A stretch of DNA of 64,000 bases from Escherichia phage iGC_PHA_EC001, in sequence record OR437326.1. One strand, 5' to 3'. This document shows, piece by piece, positions 2,655 to 46,466 of this stretch. A model generated the notes under the pieces. It saw only the letters and a program-made list of their open reading frames with translations, did not search any database and had not been told where the DNA came from. The stretch's first letter is position 1, and each line of letters begins with the position of its first letter. The position numbers and the translations under genes are program-made.

Positions 2655-2933
2655 TTAAAATGGTTCGTTAGTCTCCATCATATATTCTGCTTCTAGTTCT
2701 TCCATATGCTTTCTAAATTGGAAAGCAATTTCTGCTACAGTTACATTTAAATCTTTTTCAAAAACTTCTGTAGAGCCTTCATAAAAACGAATACCGTCAA
2801 TTAAAAGCCCTCCGTGGTAATCCCAATCACTTTCACGAGAAAGCGGGTTAGGCTCTTCATAATAGTAATCCACCTCCACAACTAAGGCTTTCCCGTTACG
2901 AGTGGTGTATTCAAAATCAAAAGTGTTAATCAT
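2655..2933 (-). CDS. hypothetical protein (92 aa)
   Basis: ORF in gene array, stop/start abutting neighbours. Confidence 0.5.
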   Translation of the reverse strand: MINTFDFEYTTRNGKALVVEVDYYYEEPNPLSRESDWDYHGGLLIDGIRFYEGSTEVFEKDLNVTVAEIAFQFRKHMEELEAEYMMETNEPF

Positions 2934-3877
2934 TATAGCTCCTCAAATAAAAGTCTACGACGCTCATTCAACACATCAATGTGATAATGAGTCCTGACAT
3001 ACTTAGCTAATGCTAATCCTTTCTCCATGCAAACATCGGGAGCACTTAATAAGTATTCCGTAATATCTTTCCACTCGGAAGGTGTTTCAGCAAAGAATAA
3101 CAAATCTTTAAACTCTTGTGGATGATAATTCTCACGAGGAGAACAGATCAAAGGTAAACCCTTAGCACCTGCCTCAAGAATTTTAAGATTGCTTTTTGCA
3201 TTATTAAACACGTTATCAATCAATGGCGCAAGACTGATTTGATGACCATCGTAAGATTCCATGTAGTTGGCATATGGTCTTACACCTTCATAAACACAAG
3301 TTGGTGCTACATTTTCTCTGATCACAGACCATTCACGACTACTTAAAACTTCAGAATCCCTACGAAAACCACATATTGTAAGATCTTTACCAAAATCGGG
3401 CAAGATAGCCAAATCTTGTTTATGTGTTTCACTTCCAGCCCAGACTAATGGAGTTTTGGAGTAGCGATCACGGGTCAACACAAATTGACCTTCATCGTAA
3501 GGAAGTCCATTAGGGATTATGTGCACATTATCATTGTATTGTGAAAGTTCAACTTGCAAAGCAGGTGTCGTAGTTGTAACAAGATCGCTGTGCTCTAAAA
3601 ACCATTTTAAATGTTCACGAATACCTGATTCAAAAATACCTTCTAGCATGTGTCCTTTTGGAATAACTAAAGAGTCATCCAAATCCATAACCATTTTAAA
3701 ACCTAGGTTTTTAAGGGCTAAAAAGCCCTCTTTACCTTTTGTTGGCACCCCGTTAAAAACGAAAACGTTGTGTTTAGGTTGTGAAGAGAACTGCCTTGAG
3801 TAAGGCAGCACTACCCTATGGAAATCGCAGACACTATAATTGATTCCGTTACGATTGTCAAGAATTATTTGTCCCAT
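2933..3877 (-). CDS. putative GT-B fold glycosyltransferase (paralog 1)
   Basis: Clear paralog of 3885..4871 (shared CDYHR, VWAG, NxKSNLKILEAGAKG(L/I)P); C-terminal KILEAGAKGLPLI resembles GT1/GT4 family motif. Confidence 0.5.
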   Translation of the reverse strand: MGQIILDNRNGINYSVCDFHRVVLPYSRQFSSQPKHNVFVFNGVPTKGKEGFLALKNLGFKMVMDLDDSLVIPKGHMLEGIFESGIREHLKWFLEHSDLVTTTTPALQVELSQYNDNVHIIPNGLPYDEGQFVLTRDRYSKTPLVWAGSETHKQDLAILPDFGKDLTICGFRRDSEVLSSREWSVIRENVAPTCVYEGVRPYANYMESYDGHQISLAPLIDNVFNNAKSNLKILEAGAKGLPLICSPRENYHPQEFKDLLFFAETPSEWKDITEYLLSAPDVCMEKGLALAKYVRTHYHIDVLNERRRLLFEEL

Positions 3878-28952: not shown

Positions 28953-29098
28953 AAAACCTCCTCATAGTAAGGTAAAGCCTTGATCAATTGTTCTGAAGCA
29001 CCATTCTCTATCCATGTAGCCCCGTTGTCAAGAGAAACATACCCTTTCTTATCGATAAATTTACGAAGACAACCAGTGAACTTGTTTTTGTAGATCAT
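28949..29098 (-). CDS. hypothetical small protein (49 aa)
   Basis: Own translation MIYKNKFTGCLRKFIDKKGYVSLDNGATWIENGASEQLIKALPYYEEVL; ATGA overlaps at both ends. Confidence 0.35.
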   Translation of the reverse strand: MIYKNKFTGCLRKFIDKKGYVSLDNGATWIENGASEQLIKALPYYEEVL

Positions 29099-29538
29099 TT
29101 CTTCTTTCCTTTCTTTAATTTGTTGTGACCTTTACCCTTATAAAGCTTGTGATTACGAGCAGACGGGTTATTTTGGTTCTCCAGTCGGCTAACAGGTGTA
29201 TTCCAAAGGTTTCCTGCTACAAAAGATGCTGCCACAAGTTCTTCCAGGTATACAAAATCCAAAGCAGGTATCTTTGTTTCCCTAACCTCGCGTTCTACAT
29301 TAGACAACACGCCTTCTTCCTTACTGTCTTCTTTTTCAATTACAGACCAACCCTCTTCCTGCCAAGCTTCCCCTCTGAACCAAGTTTCCATGTTATAACC
29401 TTGTTCGTCGAGAATAACACCATCTCGCATCTCAAACCATTCGCCACCACAAAAATGGCGGTGCTCAACACGTCTACCTTCCTTCATTGCTTCTTTAGCT
29501 TCGGGCCAAGTCAGTTTGATGTTTTGGATGTTTTGCAT
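29095..29538 (-). CDS. hypothetical protein (147 aa), first gene of leftward block
   Basis: ORF-track ORF; Lys-rich C-terminus. Confidence 0.5.
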   Translation of the reverse strand: MQNIQNIKLTWPEAKEAMKEGRRVEHRHFCGGEWFEMRDGVILDEQGYNMETWFRGEAWQEEGWSVIEKEDSKEEGVLSNVEREVRETKIPALDFVYLEELVAASFVAGNLWNTPVSRLENQNNPSARNHKLYKGKGHNKLKKGKKK

Positions 29539-29652
29539 TTGTTTTCTCCTTTTGTTTGGTAGTAGTTGATCTTAACAAGATTAAAAAGTATGTCAATACT
29601 TGATCTGAAATTATTTTCAGGTATCATATATGAACATTAACAAGAGAGGTAG
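29539..29652. promoter_or_regulatory. divergent (strand-switch) control region
   Basis: Only gap between leftward and rightward gene blocks; AT-rich with ttgatc/ttaaca and tatcat hexamers on both strands. Confidence 0.4.
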
Positions 29653-29946
29653 ATGATGAACATTACTTTAGCAACTAAGAATATTTCTGAAACAATTAAC
29701 GGTTTTGGTGTGATTGTAGCCTTGCACGGTAACAATGAGAAATGGTTGGCTTCTTTTGAAGAGGATCGTCAGCACAACATCATTTTAGATGCTCCTATAA
29801 AAGTTATGCATATTGTTGGTGAAAGCAAAGTGCTCACTTCCTCCCGTTCAAAGGAACAAATTACAAACGAATTAGTAAAACTGCTTGACAATGTTCTTAA
29901 CATGTTTGATAATGCACCCATCGACACAAAACGTGTCTTAATGTGA
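29653..29946 (+). CDS. hypothetical protein (97 aa)
   Basis: ORF with RBS agaggtag. Confidence 0.5.
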   Translation: MMNITLATKNISETINGFGVIVALHGNNEKWLASFEEDRQHNIILDAPIKVMHIVGESKVLTSSRSKEQITNELVKLLDNVLNMFDNAPIDTKRVLM

Positions 29947-29958
29947 AAGGAGAACAAA

Positions 29959-30246
29959 ATGTACTATTCACAAGACGAAGTAGCAAACATTAAACTGGCA
30001 GTGGGAGATCTTATTGTGTCACCTAACTACTATTGGGATAACAGAGATTTGGTTGAAGTAGTAACCTATGTTGGAGTTGAAGGTATTGTGCTCTACACAC
30101 TAGGTGGAGGTGTTGTTGGGGAAATGGAACGTTATACGACAACGAAGAAACTGGTAAGCTCTTATCACATGTTTTTACACCAAGGTTCGGAAGAGTATAC
30201 AGCTTTCTTGTTGAAATTAGATGCAGATCGGGAGAAGGCACGATGA
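29959..30246 (+). CDS. hypothetical protein (95 aa)
   Basis: RBS aaggagaac. Confidence 0.5.
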   Translation: MYYSQDEVANIKLAVGDLIVSPNYYWDNRDLVEVVTYVGVEGIVLYTLGGGVVGEMERYTTTKKLVSSYHMFLHQGSEEYTAFLLKLDADREKAR

Positions 30247-30599
30247 AAATTGTACACGATGAAATTCAAATAGAAGAAAGTGACCTGATGGATTTGGATG
30301 CAGTTTTGGGGAAGGTAATCTATGCAGGAATTAAAGCCTTCCGTGAGAAGGCAAACAATAGCACGTTTGTCATGATCCCCACTAAACTGATGCGTGTTTT
30401 GTATCCAAATAGAAGTGCGCCGTATACAGATGAAGAAGAGGAGACAGGTAGAAGAGAGTGGTTAAATATTTTAGAAAAGATGGAGAATGCTTTTATTGAT
30501 AGTGGTAATCCAGAAATCGTGTATGCTGAAGATCAAAGGAAGGCACGATTAGAGGGCCGTCTTTTATTCGCTAGTTATTTTGATAATCTTTGGAGCTAA
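30243..30599 (+). CDS. hypothetical protein (118 aa)
   Basis: ORF-track ORF. Confidence 0.5.
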   Translation: MKIVHDEIQIEESDLMDLDAVLGKVIYAGIKAFREKANNSTFVMIPTKLMRVLYPNRSAPYTDEEEETGRREWLNILEKMENAFIDSGNPEIVYAEDQRKARLEGRLLFASYFDNLWS

Positions 30600-35112: not shown

Positions 35113-35292
35113 ATGGCACGTTTAGCAGATCATGAAATCTTTAAACCTATTCTGAACCACTATGATGAACTTAAAGCAGTGTTGGATTGTTATAAAGAGG
35201 ATGAAGAACGCTTGGAAGTCAATCTTAAGATAGTTCTGATGAAAGCTTTTCAAGACGGGCAAGCTAAAGTCTTAGAAGGTATGAAAAAATGA
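35113..35292 (+). CDS. hypothetical protein (59 aa)
   Basis: Trimmed to MARLADHEIF with RBS aaaggag. Confidence 0.4.
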   Translation: MARLADHEIFKPILNHYDELKAVLDCYKEDEERLEVNLKIVLMKAFQDGQAKVLEGMKK

Positions 35293-35831
35293 GAATAACT
35301 GACGAATATGTATTCTTCTTTTCACATAAAGATGTTTTTAGTAATTGGTATATTGCACCCTTTACAGAAACCGAACCAGGTTACAATCAGACATTTAATT
35401 GTGTCGAACAATACATGATGTGGCGTAAAGCTTTGCTTTTTAATGACCACAACACTGCACAGGCTATTCTGACTCATAGTTTGATACGGAAAGATGAGAA
35501 GATCCAAGCTTATTACAAACGTATGGGTAGGGCAGTGTCGGATTTTGATAACAATATGTGGGAAGAGAACCGTGAGCGTATTGTTATGCGAGGTTTATGC
35601 TTGAAATATGTACAGAATCCAGATTTGTATGCAGACTTACACCTTTACCAATACAAAACGTTTGTTGAAGCAAGCCCCTACGATAAGGTTTACGGAATTG
35701 GAATGGGGATGTATGAACCAGGGGTGCTAAACCCTGCCACCTGGAAAGGACAGAATCTTTTAGGCAAATATCATAATAAACTGATCGAAATACTTTTCCC
35801 AGACAAAATACCGCAAAGACGATATTTGTGA
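35289..35831 (+). CDS. NADAR-domain protein (YbiA/DUF1768-like N-glycosidase family)
   Basis: FSNWYIAPF, EQYMMWRKALLF, MGRAVSDFD..W, LKYVQNPDL, VEASPYDKVYGIGMG match the YbiA/NADAR family pattern as recalled. Confidence 0.7.
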   Translation: MRITDEYVFFFSHKDVFSNWYIAPFTETEPGYNQTFNCVEQYMMWRKALLFNDHNTAQAILTHSLIRKDEKIQAYYKRMGRAVSDFDNNMWEENRERIVMRGLCLKYVQNPDLYADLHLYQYKTFVEASPYDKVYGIGMGMYEPGVLNPATWKGQNLLGKYHNKLIEILFPDKIPQRRYL

Positions 35832-35886
35832 TATTTTAACTTTTTTCATTTTTAGAACAAAGGTGTCACTTTGTAGCACAGAAATA

Positions 35887-35925
35887 AGGCTCCTACAGCA
35901 CCGTAGAGAGCCTGTTATTTTGTCC
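35887..35925 (+). terminator. rho-independent terminator after NADAR gene
   Basis: ggctcctac-agcacc-gtagagagcc hairpin followed by tgttattttg. Confidence 0.5.
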
Positions 35926-36071
35926 TATACAAACCCTTGTCTTTTTCAGTTTGCATCACTAGGATTCGATCTGAGTGGGTTCCTGAAGGTCTGCCAATAA
36001 GATTAAAGGTTATCTCAAACTCCCATTACCTATTATCTCAAAAATCCCTCAAATTATTTAAACTTTTTAAG

Positions 36072-36260
36072 AATTTACAAAAGTGAAAGTTGAAAACCAA
36101 AATTTAAAGTTTAGGAAAATTATCTTAAAATGTCAGATACAAAACAAAACTCAAAAGTCAAGGAAAATTTTAAAAATTTTGCGCGCCCACAGTATTTAAA
36201 GTTTTTTTGCTTTTACAAAAATGAAAGTACAAAAGCAAAATTTAAAGTTTACAAAAATTT
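36072..36260. repeat. two imperfect direct repeats (about 45 bp) in AT-rich noncoding DNA
   Basis: ttacaaaagtgaaagttgaaaaccaaaatttaaagtttaggaaaatt (about 36072-36121) and ttacaaaaatgaaagtacaaaagcaaaatttaaagtttacaaaaatt (about 36211-36260). Confidence 0.55.
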
Positions 36261-36298
36261 ATGCAGATGGGAATGAGAAGAGTTCTCATATGGAAATG

Positions 36299-36322
36299 CA
36301 AATGATAATGATTCGCATTTAG
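36299..36322. promoter_or_regulatory. Fur-box-like palindromic motif, copy L1
   Basis: aatgataatgattcgcatttag; compare E. coli Fur box consensus gataatgataatcattatc. Confidence 0.35.
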
Positions 36323-36357
36323 GTTTATAAATGAGATTGATTCTTATTTGATAAGGT

Positions 36358-36388
36358 AAATGATAATCATTCTCATTTAGAGAATGAC
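36358..36388. promoter_or_regulatory. Fur-box-like palindromic motif, copy L2
   Basis: aaatgataatcattctcatttagagaatgac; near-perfect dyad. Confidence 0.4.
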
Positions 36389-36636
36389 GCGCAGGGGCGG
36401 TGTTTGTCTCGCGCTCCCGTGTCCCCTCGCCATGTAATAAGAATAACAGATCCAGCCAGGAAAGCAAGCGATTATTTTATCTTTACATTTCTTTACAAAT
36501 ATATAGCGCCCAGCCTACCGGCGATCAACCTTCCAACCAGTGCCCCTGGTATGTTAGCCCCGCCTTTACGCCGTGGGGTGGCGCTTCCTCTTCTGTATGT
36601 AAAACAGTATAAGCCCGATCCCTGGGCTTGTCAAGA

Positions 36637-36903
36637 TTATTTTTTGTTTTCTTGCCAGGTCAGGACACCTAGCCAAAAATGAATATCACCTTTTCCCCAA
36701 TGTGGTATATTGCTTTCTTTCCCACCTTCACGCGCCCAGGTAAAACCGCCCGTGTAACTTTGTAATTGATAACTATCCTCGACCTTATAATCTGATAGGT
36801 TGAGAACGGTTTCAACCTTTAAGCCCGTTGCGCTTGCTACCTGGTGCACCGTGCCGCCTTGCCAGCCCAATGAGTGCATAAGATGTAATGTAGTATTTGT
36901 CAT
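36637..36903 (-). CDS. hypothetical protein (88 aa) on opposite strand within GC-rich island
   Basis: Only sizeable ORF in the GC-rich segment 36390-37000; codon composition unlike flanking genes. Confidence 0.35.
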   Translation of the reverse strand: MTNTTLHLMHSLGWQGGTVHQVASATGLKVETVLNLSDYKVEDSYQLQSYTGGFTWAREGGKESNIPHWGKGDIHFWLGVLTWQENKK

Positions 36904-37012
36904 GGTGTCGCCCTTTCTTTGTTGTGCGCCCTGGTTGGCGCGGTAGAAAGATGATAGCCCTTTCCTTTATATATAGCAAGCAAAAAGAAAATAAAAAAGA
37001 TTGAAAAAGTGG

Positions 37013-37070
37013 TTGACGTTCGCCAGGTGGCGGCATAATATTTACCACGTAGCGCGGCAATGGTGCCGCT
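37013..37070 (+). promoter_or_regulatory. early promoter plus 5-prime stem-loop cassette 1
   Basis: ttgacg-N17-cataat then gcggcaatggtgccgc hairpin; RBS; ATG 37091. Confidence 0.6.
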
Positions 37071-37090
37071 CACTATTTGGAGTTAAGATC

Positions 37091-37288
37091 ATGGCAACAT
37101 TGCACATTGTGGCGAAAGCTGGACAAATCAACGTAATAGTAAACGGTTTTACTGAGTTCAGTCATCCCCAGGATGATCATGAAACGGTTTTATCTTTCAT
37201 TGATTCCCTGTTAGAAATGGGAGTCATTACAGAAGACCAGCACGCTACAAAATGCAAGCGCGTTAATCAAATTGCAGGGATAGAATAA
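37091..37288 (+). CDS. hypothetical protein (65 aa)
   Basis: Trimmed to MATLHIV downstream of cassette 1. Confidence 0.5.
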   Translation: MATLHIVAKAGQINVIVNGFTEFSHPQDDHETVLSFIDSLLEMGVITEDQHATKCKRVNQIAGIE

Positions 37289-44395: not shown

Positions 44396-44421
44396 CGTAA
44401 AGAAATGTAAATAATGCGCTA

Positions 44422-44502: not shown

Positions 44503-44922
44503 ATGAACATTAAATCAAATAATCCAGCTTACTCCTTCGATAACGCTTTTTGTCACGGTAGCGCCGCCAAAGGCTTCGAAATCGATGGTAAATTGGTTAT
44601 CGTGAACGTTGACGGGGAAGAGGTTGCAGTGTATCCGGTAAACGATGTTAAAAGCCGTTTACAATGCCGCATGGATGTTACCGCATATCAGCTTGATCCG
44701 GTCCGTGTAGTTGCCCTGGTATTAGAGGAAGAGATCAAAGCAATGCATCATAGCAATAAGTTTATTGGTGACGCGCAGGACAATATGAACGTTTGCCGCC
44801 ATAAAGTTAATGAAGCCTTGAAAGAATGCGGTTTTAAGGATCTGATGATCAAACGTGATGAAAAATTCCGCTTTCGTAATGACCTGGCAAACCGGATCTA
44901 CTCAATCTATGAAGCGTTATAA
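44503..44922 (+). CDS. hypothetical protein (139 aa)
   Basis: ORF-track ORF. Confidence 0.55.
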   Translation: MNIKSNNPAYSFDNAFCHGSAAKGFEIDGKLVIVNVDGEEVAVYPVNDVKSRLQCRMDVTAYQLDPVRVVALVLEEEIKAMHHSNKFIGDAQDNMNVCRHKVNEALKECGFKDLMIKRDEKFRFRNDLANRIYSIYEAL

Positions 44923-44935
44923 TTGACAACAAAAC

Positions 44936-44965
44936 AAGGGGCGCACTAAGCGCCCTTTCTTTTTG
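44936..44965 (+). terminator. rho-independent terminator (repeated family, copy 3)
   Basis: aaggggcgcactaagcgccctt followed by tctttttg. Confidence 0.65.
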
Positions 44966-45926
44966 CCTGAATAATGTTGATAGATTCCGCCTATGGAAAA
45001 CAGACACAGAACAAAACTGAATAAATAGCGGTATCAAGCTAATCAACCATTAAACGAATAACCATACCTCCCAGGGTAACAGGCTGTTAGAGAGCCATTT
45101 ATAGCGGTTAAAATCGATCAACAACCAACAACAAACCATCAAAAACACCCTTTTACCTCCTTTCTAGTGCAATGATAACCATTATCATCTATCCATGTTT
45201 ATCTATGCAATATAAGTGCATAACTATAATGTTGATAATAGTTCGCAACAACTAACTAACCAACAACCTAAAACAATAAGCAAACTAATCATAATCAAAG
45301 GAATAATAGCAAGATGATTGATAACGACAAACAATCAAACCATGATGAATACTAAGCAAGATAACGATAACACGACAAAACAACCAACTAACGAACAATA
45401 ACAAACGAAACCATTAAAATAATAACTATTAGCAAAATAGTGCCTGAATGAAATCATTACAAAACGAATCATTCCCAGGATCATCATTAGCACGCTATGC
45501 CGGACACATAGCGAGCTAATAATAAGCCAACTACACCCCAACAATCATAACCATCGGTGATGGTTATTTCTTGTTACTGCGTAGCTTGCAATAATTGCAA
45601 GCGTAATGACGCTTACACTTATTGCGCTGGCTTATTATTAGCATTATATGTAATTACCAAGATCATAACATTAGCGCAATAACAATAATCATTGTAGTAA
45701 TTACAAGATGAAATCATTAGCAAGATGAATAATTGCACGTAGCAACATGAGCGAATAGCGACAGGTTGCATAGTGTGCACATAGTGTATAAACATACAGG
45801 AAAATAAAGGCTAATCTTTTGGGGGCGAATACTATCGCGTAGCGATATGTTGAGCATCTTCTCTTAAACGTAAATAAAATCAGAAAATTCTTGATTTATT
45901 TTAGTTTTTATGTTAATAAACGTTTA

Positions 45927-45948
45927 AATAATAATCATTCTCATATAA
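45927..45948. promoter_or_regulatory. Fur-box-like palindromic motif, copy R1
   Basis: aataataatcattctcatataa. Confidence 0.3.
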
Positions 45949-46105
45949 ATAATAGTCTGCTTGTCATGAGCGGGATCAGTTGACAATGTTCCGTCATATG
46001 ATGAGGTTGCCAAACCATTGATAAATAAGTGTTTGTGTGATTTATAATCAAGTGGCCCACCTTGTCGCTACGTTGGCATGAGCCTTGCATAAGTCATTGA
46101 ATACG

Positions 46106-46127
46106 AATGATAATTATTCTCATTCGC
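46106..46127. promoter_or_regulatory. Fur-box-like palindromic motif, copy R2
   Basis: aatgataattattctcattcgc. Confidence 0.35.
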
Positions 46128-46466
46128 ATGATATTTGGGAATTGTCGCTGCGTGGACCTGACGGCCCGAAAATTCGCGTTAAGCACTTCTTACGTATGCG
46201 CCATGATTTTTTGCCATATGATATTGATTCTATTAGATATTCTTGCCATGATTGCCATGAAACAGGGTGTGTCGAAATAATCTCTCCCCGTAGATATTTT
46301 GGGTTACTTTTTATACAAGAGTGGGGTGTCAAAAATAATCGGTATATATGGGATAATTGATAGGAATCCCCTATGATAATTCTATTGTAATTCCCTAAGA
46401 TCGATCGTATGATGTTGGTGATTGATGATTGCCATGAAAGATGGCTAACGATGAGAGGAGATTATC

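Follow-up and report, generated by a model that had tools for sequence, protein, structure and literature searches.

The rightward early genes of phAPEC8-type phages are interrupted by an island of ~1.1 kb, one half of which is unusually rich in GC. What this DNA is and what it might do was addressed in a 64,000-nt stretch of the Escherichia phage iGC_PHA_EC001 genome (OR437326.1), hereafter referred to as the window. The original prediction, made from the sequence of the window, described positions 36390-37000 as far richer in GC than the surrounding DNA, with a single 88-aa open reading frame on the opposite strand. Both descriptions were borne out. The GC content of 36390-37000 is 46.8%, compared with 39.0% for the window on average (sd 2.3%, 611-bp windows; z = 3.35), a value reached by only 0.13% of 611-bp windows, and the highest-GC 250 bp in the 64 kb (36388-36637, 51.6% GC) were found inside the patch. 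The largest 250-bp GC step in the window leads from AT-rich DNA at 36040-36270 (23.4% GC) into the GC-rich patch on its right. The GC-rich run quoted in the prediction, gcgcaggggcggtgtttgtctcgcgctcccgtgtcccctcgcc, was located at 36390-36432.

Comparison with related phages indicates that the GC-rich stretch is most likely one half of an island (~35.9-37.0 kb) that is ancient and has been inherited vertically. The island occupies the same position between the same neighbors in ~140 records of Stephanstirmvirinae (phAPEC8/phi92-type phages); it is present and syntenic in all relatives examined, and its distribution is not patchy. The non-coding part, 36359-36600, is the only DNA of the region that blastn still detects in Vequintavirinae (rV5, GAP31, SSE121, Mydo and PBES02). 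A metagenome pattern scan was too permissive as such and gave, once filtered, divergent homologues of use. The patch is best seen as a control region long conserved in phAPEC8/rV5-type coliphages; an origin as foreign DNA is not supported. The features recognized in and beside it are the following (no strand is given for DNA elements).

36050-36259: AT-rich tract, 23% GC, holding shorter repeats as well as a pair of 72-nt direct repeats at 36050-36121 and 36188-36259
36272-36377: four Fur-type palindromes starting at 36272, 36301, 36330 and 36359, with an exact start-to-start spacing of 29 bp
36380-36385, + strand: -10-like hexamer GAGAAT, uncertain candidate for the -10 element of a Fur-occluded rightward promoter with +1 near 36389
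36388-36433: GC-richest segment, 71.7% GC, between the palindrome array and the P2 start
36440-36467, - strand: predicted promoter P2, -35 TTGCTT (36467->36462), 16-nt spacer, -10 TATTCT (36445->36440), predicted start at an A at ~36433
36482-36496, - strand: direct repeat GTAAAGAAATGTAAA, an exact match to the CpxR consensus GTAAA-N5-GTAAA, just upstream of P2
36497-36604, + strand: predicted RNA element of ~110 nt, nearly invariant, matched by covariance model R1
36515-36532, + strand: predicted 18-nt single-stranded stretch CTACCGGCGATCAACCTT of the RNA element
36534-36553, + strand: hairpin H1, with covariation
36554-36583, + strand: G·U-containing predicted terminator stem H3/H2 of the RNA element
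36584-36597, + strand: pyrimidine/U-rich tail after the terminator stem
36606-36634, - strand: predicted promoter P1, TTGACA-17-TATACT, 11/12 matches, predicted start at ~36599
36637-36903, - strand: orf88, encoding an 88-aa protein (phrog_19316) with no function assigned
36951-36979, - strand: candidate orf88 promoter TTGCTA-17-TATCAT, 9/12 matches, a consensus match only

The opposite-strand frame, orf88, is a real small protein-coding gene, as judged by its conserved frame, its homologues and a foldable predicted product. Homologues were found in 151 phage records and fall into 21 protein clusters, the family core being free of gaps. An AlphaFold model of the protein is all-helical with a pLDDT of 95; searches yielded no Pfam hit and no structural match to a known fold. 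The gene is not shared with Vequintavirinae, and identity in orf88 falls to only 73% in phages with 99% identity in their non-coding DNA. Its candidate promoter points away from the rightward promoter at 37013.

On the + strand, frames of 70 and 92 aa (36400-36682) were considered and rejected: 1-nt indels disrupt them even in relatives with 98-99% identity, and the region is therefore non-coding. What is conserved here instead appears to be an RNA. In an alignment of the core, 93.2% of cells can pair on the + strand compared to 78.1% on the - strand and 38-45% in slid controls, these counts being biased towards structure since the alignment (A3) was fitted to the model. Six pairs of the element are changed on both sides. 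In hairpin H1 this applies to five of nine pairs, pair 39-67, for example, being A-U in 28 of the sequences and G-C in another 17, while the terminator stem varies between U·G and C-G and between G·U and A-U or G-C. Because the core is mostly invariant, most pairs, including the whole of a proposed antiterminator helix, carry no covariation information. Just before the stem, ~60 nt show almost no variation in two subfamilies. The stem is followed by a U-rich tail in every lineage, with differing sequence; in the window the tail (CUUCCUCUUCUGU) is only moderately U-rich and is U-poor for an intrinsic terminator. A terminator scan picked out 36569-36583 (+) of the window and, in GAP31, 1697-1720, and the arrangement of a stem and then a U-rich tract marks 36554-36597 (+) as a predicted Rho-independent terminator.

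The original prediction had also noted hairpin-forming segments and had proposed a structured RNA element as one explanation of the patch. Comparative data uphold one hairpin and the terminator stem further to the right, and the idea of an RNA element holds for 36497-36604. It does not extend to the quoted run at 36390-36432: RNAalifold returned no consensus secondary structure for 36388-36433 on either strand, though motifs such as CGGTGWTTGTCTC are conserved there. Nor did single-sequence folding lend support. The stability of the core fold did not differ from that of shuffled sequence on either strand (z ~0), and folding of 281-nt windows gave no significant gain in stability over shuffles for either strand (z -1.5 and -1.7). 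The covariance-model scan suggested earlier matched no Rfam family at gathering score over the 64 kb and gave only chance hits at E up to 10 over 35800-37100; ARAGORN found no tRNA or tmRNA, and no paralogues of the core were seen elsewhere in the window. The predicted RNA element is thus absent from Rfam and undescribed, and its sequence is better conserved than the neighboring genes across two subfamilies. It is not universal, since rV5 lacks the core and carries a second "box + GC-rich" module in its place.

Two predicted promoters directed leftward flank the core. In each of the 29 relatives with the core, P1 reaches 9-12 of 12 matches, and P2 has 7-9 of 12 in 27 relatives. In both, the hexamers are conserved at 16-18 nt spacing while the spacer sequence drifts, which is why they are predicted to be sigma-70 promoters; promoter scans of GAP31 and L155 recovered both. 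The predicted P1 start directly abuts the + strand terminator tail, and the GC-rich P1 spacer doubles as the orf88 terminator hairpin (36629->36611). A leaderless AUG at the P2 start was considered and rejected, as it is absent where the + strand reads CGCTATG. The CpxR consensus upstream of P2 has a second exact match at 44397, also just upstream of a promoter; two matches in the window compare with 0.44 expected, and 9 of 100 shuffles reach this number. The distance from the GTAAA repeat to the P2 -35 element is 4 or 13-14 nt depending on the lineage, approximately one helical turn apart, and the most divergent lineages keep only one GTAAA. A role of the repeat as an UP element would be equally possible as one as a CpxR box.

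The canonical Fur box is a 19-bp GATAATGATAATCATTATC or, in its 7-1-7 form, TGATAATnATTATCA. The proximal palindrome of the array (36361-36375, TGATAATCATTCTCA) has one mismatch to the latter and the box at 36303-36317 has two, the array as a whole consisting of two strong and two weak boxes. Sites with no more than one mismatch to TGATAATnATTATCA number three in the window, compared to 0.09 expected, and those with no more than two mismatches number seven, compared to 0.97. All three best sites fall in the two large non-coding regions, which account for 3.5% of the window. Nearly every relative keeps the proximal box, and in L009 it matches the consensus perfectly. Over 47 sites in relatives, the variable positions are 4 and 12, symmetric about the center, as expected if the site is bound by a dimer. 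Like the canonical box, the extended phage sequence AATGATAATCATTCTCATT is palindromic; unlike it, the phage consensus favors C at position 12, with G common at position 4 (TGAGAATCATTCTCA), and the predicted boxes form an array phased at 29 bp. Taken by their sequence, the palindromes match the Fur-operator consensus far beyond chance and are predicted host Fur sites.

Boxes occur at the same locus in two subfamilies of Enterobacteriaceae phages as well as in an Enterovibrio phage. The product of orf88 was considered as the palindrome-binding protein and rejected, since rV5-like and T5-like phages have the palindromes and no orf88 homologue; the presence of the same palindromes in T5-like phages argues for a host factor over a phage factor. 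In one lineage the GAATGACGGGCAGG junction is kept and a different repeat set replaces the boxes, as expected of exchangeable operators.

A promoter that such operators might control is less distinct. An nnRAAT motif, then 3 nt, then CGSGCA is conserved in all lineages. In Vequintavirinae the counterpart is TTGAAT-18-CAGAAT, a weak promoter with 8/12 matches whose spacer is filled by the predicted Fur box. In the window no -35 element is recognizable and the promoter scan reported no + strand promoter around 36380-36385; several lineages read CTGAAT or CGGAAT at -10, so that the critical A at -11 is missing. With a rightward promoter this weak, the + strand RNA might begin at a more distal upstream site or arise by read-through of the operon upstream. 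A 17-aa mini-ORF from the ATG at 36384 was rejected, as its start codon is not conserved, being ATA in SSE121 and rV5-like phages.

A search of the literature found no report of transcripts or of Fur binding at the locus. The reading that we favor, at a probability of roughly 0.45, is that of a Fur-gated rightward non-coding RNA with a ryhB-like layout, opposed by constitutive antisense promoters; in it Fur binding, the rightward promoter, every transcript end and the biological output are putative. Host Fur-Fe2+ would sit on the four phased operators and silence rightward transcription from the array or just upstream of it, with GAGAAT as the -10 element and +1 near 36389. When iron is scarce, Fur would leave and a non-coding RNA of ~200 nt would be made, whose 3' domain (36497-36597) would comprise the invariant 18-nt single-stranded stretch, the hairpin and the intrinsic terminator. 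The first 9 nt of the 18-mer could alternatively pair with the terminator 3' arm, in which case read-through may itself be regulated. The two leftward promoters, presumably constitutive, would fire head-on, P1 from right beside the terminator and P2 from ~45 nt away from the putative rightward start, and their transcripts would cross the Fur array into the AT-rich repeats. A Fur-gated + strand RNA opposed in this manner would make the locus a convergent-transcription switch set by the iron status of the host, and this layout suggests that the phage reads that status.

Three known systems offer partial precedents. In E. coli ryhB, a Fur box lies over the promoter spacer and -10 element, as may be the case here, and the transcript starts with GCG within a few bases of the box, in the same order of box, -10 and +1 as predicted for the phage; a GC-rich 5' segment, an A/U-rich middle and a terminal intrinsic terminator would also be common to the two. 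There is, however, no sequence homology, and the Rfam RyhB model does not match the phage locus. The predicted phage RNA is ~200 nt long compared to 90 for RyhB, and it would be made at a locus of a virulent phage with much weaker promoter hexamers and two opposing antisense promoters. Complementarity of the + strand RNA to RyhB was also considered and dropped, as by eye it is not conserved between lineages. The pR/pL promoters of coliphage 186 form a face-to-face switch, and cis-antisense RNA pairs are known; they share with the phage locus convergent promoters and overlapping transcripts (predicted here), one of them under a (here putative) repressor. Unlike the lysis/lysogeny choice of temperate 186, which uses a phage repressor, the locus belongs to a virulent phage and its presumed repressor is a host metal sensor. 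Finally, as in terminator/antiterminator attenuators, a conserved upstream strand, CUACCGGCG, is complementary to the terminator 3' arm and loop, with 94-99% of cells pairable in 45 sequences. In contrast to these attenuators, its invariant columns give no covariation, no Rfam family matches, and no ligand or factor is assigned here.

The leftward promoters can also be read as part of a transcription-activated origin of replication, in which tandem promoters send G-rich transcripts into AT-rich iteron-like repeats, the RNA opening the duplex or acting as a primer for DNA synthesis, in the manner of the T7 primary origin or of T4 oriF/oriG, and the boxes being accessory protein sites. We consider this unlikely, but it accounts for several observations. 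Two or three conserved leftward promoters (P1 and P2, joined by P3 in Vequintavirinae) are aimed at the 23%-GC tract, which contains no credible small ORF and resembles a region of iterons or of DNA unwinding; direct repeats are present here in every clade, iteron-like and differing in sequence from clade to clade. GC skew of the + strand is negative across 36400-36800, so that leftward transcripts would be G-rich. The rV5 genome paper could not locate an origin and drew a "non-coding" block without explanation (PMC3606486). While an AT-rich tract with iteron-like repeats beside promoters was thus found, initiator sites, an initiator gene and a skew switch were not: there are no DnaA boxes within 35.8-36.7 kb, GC skew has no inflection at the locus, its minimum near 29-30 kb merely following gene orientation, and no initiator gene was identified, orf88 being absent from Vequintavirinae. 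An origin would also leave unexplained the + strand-specific G·U pattern and the U-rich tail of the core.

Slightly less likely in our view is a plain boundary between convergent units. The core would then be a terminator that keeps rightward read-through from running into orf88, with P1, P2 and the palindromes either incidental or there for some phage protein. The terminator-like stem does stand head-to-head with the orf88 terminator hairpin, and no convincing dedicated + strand promoter was found. A plain terminator, however, needs no such conservation as that of the near-invariant stretch upstream of the stem next to an orf88 of only 73% identity, and this reading does not account for promoter hexamers kept over divergent spacers or for the excess of Fur consensus matches.

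A little more doubtful still is an element acting at the DNA level, in which Fur on the phased palindromes would form a nucleoprotein structure, either a counterpart of T5 iss or a Fur sink that relieves repression of the host iron regulon while phage DNA builds up, with the RNA signals secondary. A sink is quantitatively doubtful, given an abundant regulator and a handful of sites per genome. The comparison with T5 is closer. In T5-like phages the same palindromes (AAATGAGAATCATTCTCATTT and similar, 83-85% identity over ~55 bp) fill the 1.7-kb non-coding iss/Repeat Region 3, which carries palC-palJ in T5 (Davison, bioRxiv 10.1101/866236); in both cases the phage is virulent and enterobacterial, and the palindromes sit in extended non-coding DNA. 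The other strong boxes of the window are in the non-coding DNA where the 342-bp BME3 terminal repeat maps, and the locus is ~10 kb from this putative end, comparable to the iss distance in T5. On the other hand, only two strong and two weak boxes are present; the paired DnaA boxes and DRD repeats of T5 (10.1101/866236) are absent; the T5 region lies inside a 10-kb terminal repeat, whereas here the terminal repeat maps ~10 kb away (~12 kb in BME3); and two-step injection is not known for these myoviruses. The conserved core, which T5 lacks, and the promoters would remain without explanation.

The other proposal of the original prediction, horizontally acquired foreign DNA, is very improbable: it draws on the atypical composition and on the GC step, and is contradicted by the distribution among relatives, the non-coding part being the most deeply conserved DNA of a region syntenic in all of them, with no mobility genes in the island and, in a search of 5,426 E. 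coli genomes that admitted hits at E up to 10, no similarity to island or core.

The preferred reading, a Fur-gated RNA opposed by antisense promoters, can be extended to Fur as a general host factor recruited by lytic phages, the locus combining an iron-sensing RNA switch with an iss-like DNA landmark. We put this forward as a speculation that is probably wrong as a whole. Predicted Fur arrays would lie in the main non-coding control regions of at least three virulent lineages, having been found in phAPEC8/phi92-like, rV5-like and T5-like phages and an Enterovibrio phage, both beside the terminal repeat and ~10 kb inside. Fur may then be the host protein that acts on the T5 injection-stop palindromes, and for these long-puzzling sites it is a concrete candidate. 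Even if the locus is an origin or a terminator zone, it explains the "non-coding" block on the rV5 map. If Fur does bind, strictly lytic coliphages of interest for therapy (relatives of phAPEC8, phi92, rV5 and PVP-SE1) would be wired into the host iron regulon; since gut, urine and blood are iron-limited, phage expression and efficacy could vary with iron in a way that laboratory media mask.

The original prediction described a GC-rich island with a single minus-strand ORF, and both features were recovered: GC content is 46.8% at 36390-37000 vs 39.0% for the window (sliding-window z 3.35, a level reached by 0.13% of windows), the GC-rich run it quoted lies at 36390-36432, and the 88-aa ORF, hereafter orf88, occupies 36637-36903. 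The highest GC content of any 250 bp in the 64 kb (51.6%) is found at 36388-36637; a 23%-GC tract precedes it, which makes this the largest compositional step of the window. Phapecoctavirus genomes (DIJ07P2, SKA64, nepoznato, ESCO13 and phAPEC8 relatives; Stephanstirmvirinae) share 94-98% identity with this region. Where relatives are annotated, every gene of the interval is a "hypothetical protein", and ~750 bp carry no gene. The flanking small genes are on the plus strand, each preceded by its own sigma-70-type promoter and a stem-loop, in agreement with the proposed location in a rightward early region. An early intergenic cassette of ~60-95 bp recurs at 37285, 38747, 40261, 40584, 43116, 43600 and 43961; it joins a sigma-70 promoter to a GC stem-loop and a "agaagagagattat" ribosome-binding site, and recalls the PeSL (promoter-stem-loop) cassettes known from T4-type phages. 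The product of the gene adjoining the non-coding region on the left (35289-35831, plus strand) contains a NADAR domain (E 1e-35); the annotation in relatives is YbiA-like N-glycosidase. The sole inflection of GC skew in the window, a cumulative minimum at 29000-30500, falls together with the change from leftward to rightward genes.

The suggestion that the island is horizontally acquired is not supported: it is syntenic in ~140 phage records, its non-coding part is conserved into Vequintavirinae, and a similarity search of E. coli genomes revealed no island-like sequence. In a sensitive blastn search (query 36040-36640), 36359-36600 retained 70-77% identity in Vequintavirinae (GAP31, SSE121, Mydo, KB57, PBES02 and Certrevirus; in rV5 for 36359-36477 only). 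Annotation of this counterpart is almost always absent, and the rV5 genome map shows an unexplained "non-coding" box (PMC3606486). Between the window and phage ASO2A the non-coding stretch 36300-36660 is 99.4% identical, compared to 73% for the adjoining orf88 protein; constraint is, therefore, strongest on the non-coding DNA. The orf88 gene itself is conserved in 151 phage records (21 protein clusters), all of which, a few outliers apart, belong to this phage group. It has no Pfam domain, its PHROG match is a family of unknown function, and its confident five-helix AlphaFold model (pLDDT 95) has no significant structural neighbours. An unrelated minus-strand ORF of 61-63 aa takes its position in Vequintavirinae. 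Several records bearing the name "Campylobacter phage" (B15, A110a, A12a, C7 and others) share 90-94% identity with these coliphages; E. coli phages present in preparations of Campylobacter phages, or wrong labels, are the probable cause.

The anatomy of the locus was read from an alignment of 30 sequences, afterwards enlarged to 45 distinct sequences.

Features of the non-coding region (window positions)
36050-36259: AT-rich tract with 72-nt direct repeats
36272, 36301, 36330 and 36359: four palindromes at an exact 29-bp spacing
36380-36385: GAGAAT of the conserved junction "nnRAAT + 3 nt + CGSGCA"
36388-36433: 72%-GC segment; motifs such as CGGTGWTTGTCTC are retained
36467->36462 (-35) and 36445->36440 (-10), minus strand: predicted promoter P2, hexamers conserved
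36482-36496, minus strand: GTAAAGAAATGTAAA, directly upstream of P2, an exact CpxR-type GTAAA-N5-GTAAA
36497-36604, plus strand: core element, ~55 invariant columns
36515-36532, plus strand: invariant 18-mer CUACCGGCGAUCAACCUU, preceding hairpin H1
36634->36606, minus strand: predicted promoter P1, TTGACA-17-TATACT; its GC-rich spacer is also the orf88 terminator hairpin

Coding is excluded for the core by 1-nt indels in one loop among closely related phages, and we infer a plus-strand RNA element. In a plain MAFFT alignment, columns 39 and 61 always pair, as G-C (12 sequences) or as A-U (11). Divergent homologues, taken from IMG/VR and metagenomes, were aligned to the core by a covariance model. 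In that alignment both sides are changed in 5 of the 9 pairs of H1 (36534-36553; variants ACCAG/CTGGT, CATCCC/GGGTATG, GCAGCCC/GGGCCTGC and CATGC/GCTATG). In the distal stem (36554-36583) one pair alternates between C-G and A-U, and four others between U·G and C-G or between G·U and G-C/A-U. Overall, 93.2% of cells pair, compared to 38-45% with partners slid, and the covariation score was reached by 0 of 500 shuffles; these figures lean towards structure because the alignment was fitted to the model. In a minus-strand reading pairing drops to 78.1%, since the invariant G·U pairs become A·C. Thermodynamic stability of the core is not unusual. The expectation of a structured RNA is thus partly borne out, for the core with its covarying H1 but not for the quoted GC-rich run, as no consensus fold was found on either strand of 36388-36433; a search of Rfam matched no family to the core.

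The distal stem is followed in every lineage by a U-rich tail of varying sequence (UUUCCUCUUCUGU, UUUUCUCUUCUGU, UUGCCUUACUU, UUUUGUUACUGU, UUUUACUCUCUUUAUU), and an independent scan called a plus-strand terminator there in both the window and GAP31. Judged by these features, a plus-strand transcript very probably ends at ~36584-36597. The first nine bases of the 18-mer are complementary to the terminator loop and 3′ arm (CGCC...GGUGG; 94-99% of cells pairable) and may form an antiterminator helix; the columns concerned are invariant.

Palindrome 36359 (AATGATAATCATTCTCATT) includes TGATAATCATTCTCA, one mismatch from the 7-1-7 consensus TGATAATnATTATCA of the host iron regulator Fur; palindrome 36301 has two mismatches. 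In the whole window, 3 sites lie within one mismatch of this consensus (0.09 expected) and 7 within two (0.97 expected); the best three all fall in the two large non-coding regions. The proximal box is almost invariant among relatives, varying at symmetric positions 4 and 12 alone, and one metagenomic relative matches the consensus perfectly. Direct repeats of other clades occupy the same place as those at 36050-36259 with different sequence. In a divergent lineage of IMG/VR contigs (L158, L162, L166) the Fur boxes are replaced by another repeat family (GTGATAGTTTC / AACTATTAATCAC / GTTACTATC), and the "CTGAATGACGGGCAGGGG" junction, P1/P2 and the core RNA are all retained, a pattern that suits exchangeable operators before a fixed start site. 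Phages of rV5 type, such as JES2013 (1470-1760), lack the core RNA and carry in its place a second tandem module of Fur box and GC-rich segment, likewise followed by a leftward TTGACA promoter. In Vibrio phage 1.101.O (an Enterovibrio phage; 2780-3030, minus strand), a homologue of orf88 with 37% identity is accompanied by the Fur box TGATAATGATTCTCA and the adjacent GC-rich module; the core RNA is absent. The second large non-coding region of the window (44960-46460; 1.5 kb, 35.5% GC, odd caacaa/aacaac tracts) has Fur-type boxes at 45173 (TGATAACCATTATCA), 45929 and 46108 (TGATAATTATTCTCA). The 342-bp direct terminal repeat of the related phage BME3 aligns to ~46089-46190; the physical genome end is, therefore, probably in this region, ~10 kb right of the island.

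The same Fur-type palindromes also occur in T5-like phages, where they lie in a 1.7-kb non-coding part of the terminal repeat, the injection-stop region (iss, or Repeat Region 3). In HASG4 (2040-2560) this region is crowded with them (TGAGAATCATTCTCA, TGCGAATCATTATCA) and adjoins DnaA boxes. Davison (10.1101/866236) listed the palindromes as palC-palJ, with the binding protein not named; the T5 literature searched contained no mention of Fur, nor was a paper found linking Fur with these phages. Since no orf88 homologue was found in T5-like or rV5-like phages, the common denominator would be a host protein, for which Fur is the obvious candidate from the sequence.

In the conserved candidate for a plus-strand promoter, TTGAAT-18-CAGAAT, the proximal Fur box lies within the spacer, and the putative +1 is the "GCG/GGG" opening the GC-rich segment. 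The order of elements is that of the promoter of ryhB, a host Fur-repressed small RNA gene (in E. coli MG1655, TTGGACA...GCGAATGAGAATGATTATTATTGtctc, then +1 GCGATCAGG). The candidate hexamers are weak: the window has no -35, and CTGAAT/CGGAAT variants lack A at -11. Alternatively, the RNA may begin at weak promoters within the AT-rich repeats, or be read-through of the upstream operon. On the minus strand, P1 is matched at 9-12 of 12 positions in 29/29 core-bearing relatives, with divergent spacers. The P2 hexamers are retained (TATTCT/TATTAT/TATATT/TACTAT; TTGnnn) with a spacer wholly different between clades, and P2 likely starts at a conserved "CAT" (36434-36432). Depending on lineage, GTAAAGAAATGTAAA stands 4 nt or 13-14 nt from the P2 -35, a difference of about one helical turn. 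The second GTAAA repeat is gone in the most divergent lineages, so that reading GTAAAGAAATGTAAA as an UP element is equally possible. A second exact copy (44397-44411, plus strand) lies 17 nt upstream of a strong TTGACA-17-TATATT promoter preceding ORF 44503-44922, an arrangement identical to that at P2.

The best-supported reading, at somewhat under even odds (about 0.45), is a rightward non-coding RNA gated by Fur, with constitutive antisense promoters firing against it; this reading makes use of every conserved part, and the host offers a direct precedent. Next comes its strongest rival, a transcription-activated origin in which tandem leftward promoters point at lineage-specific AT-rich repeats; the architecture is the one positive marker of an origin, as DnaA boxes and a skew change are absent from the locus. 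Possibly the Fur array acts at the DNA level, as a decoy or a landmark like T5 iss; a plain convergent terminator is also possible. Known kinds of element already include Fur boxes, Fur-repressed small RNAs and antisense promoter pairs. In the sources searched, the core RNA element appears undescribed, as does the predicted use of host Fur operators by strictly lytic phages from several families in their non-coding control regions.
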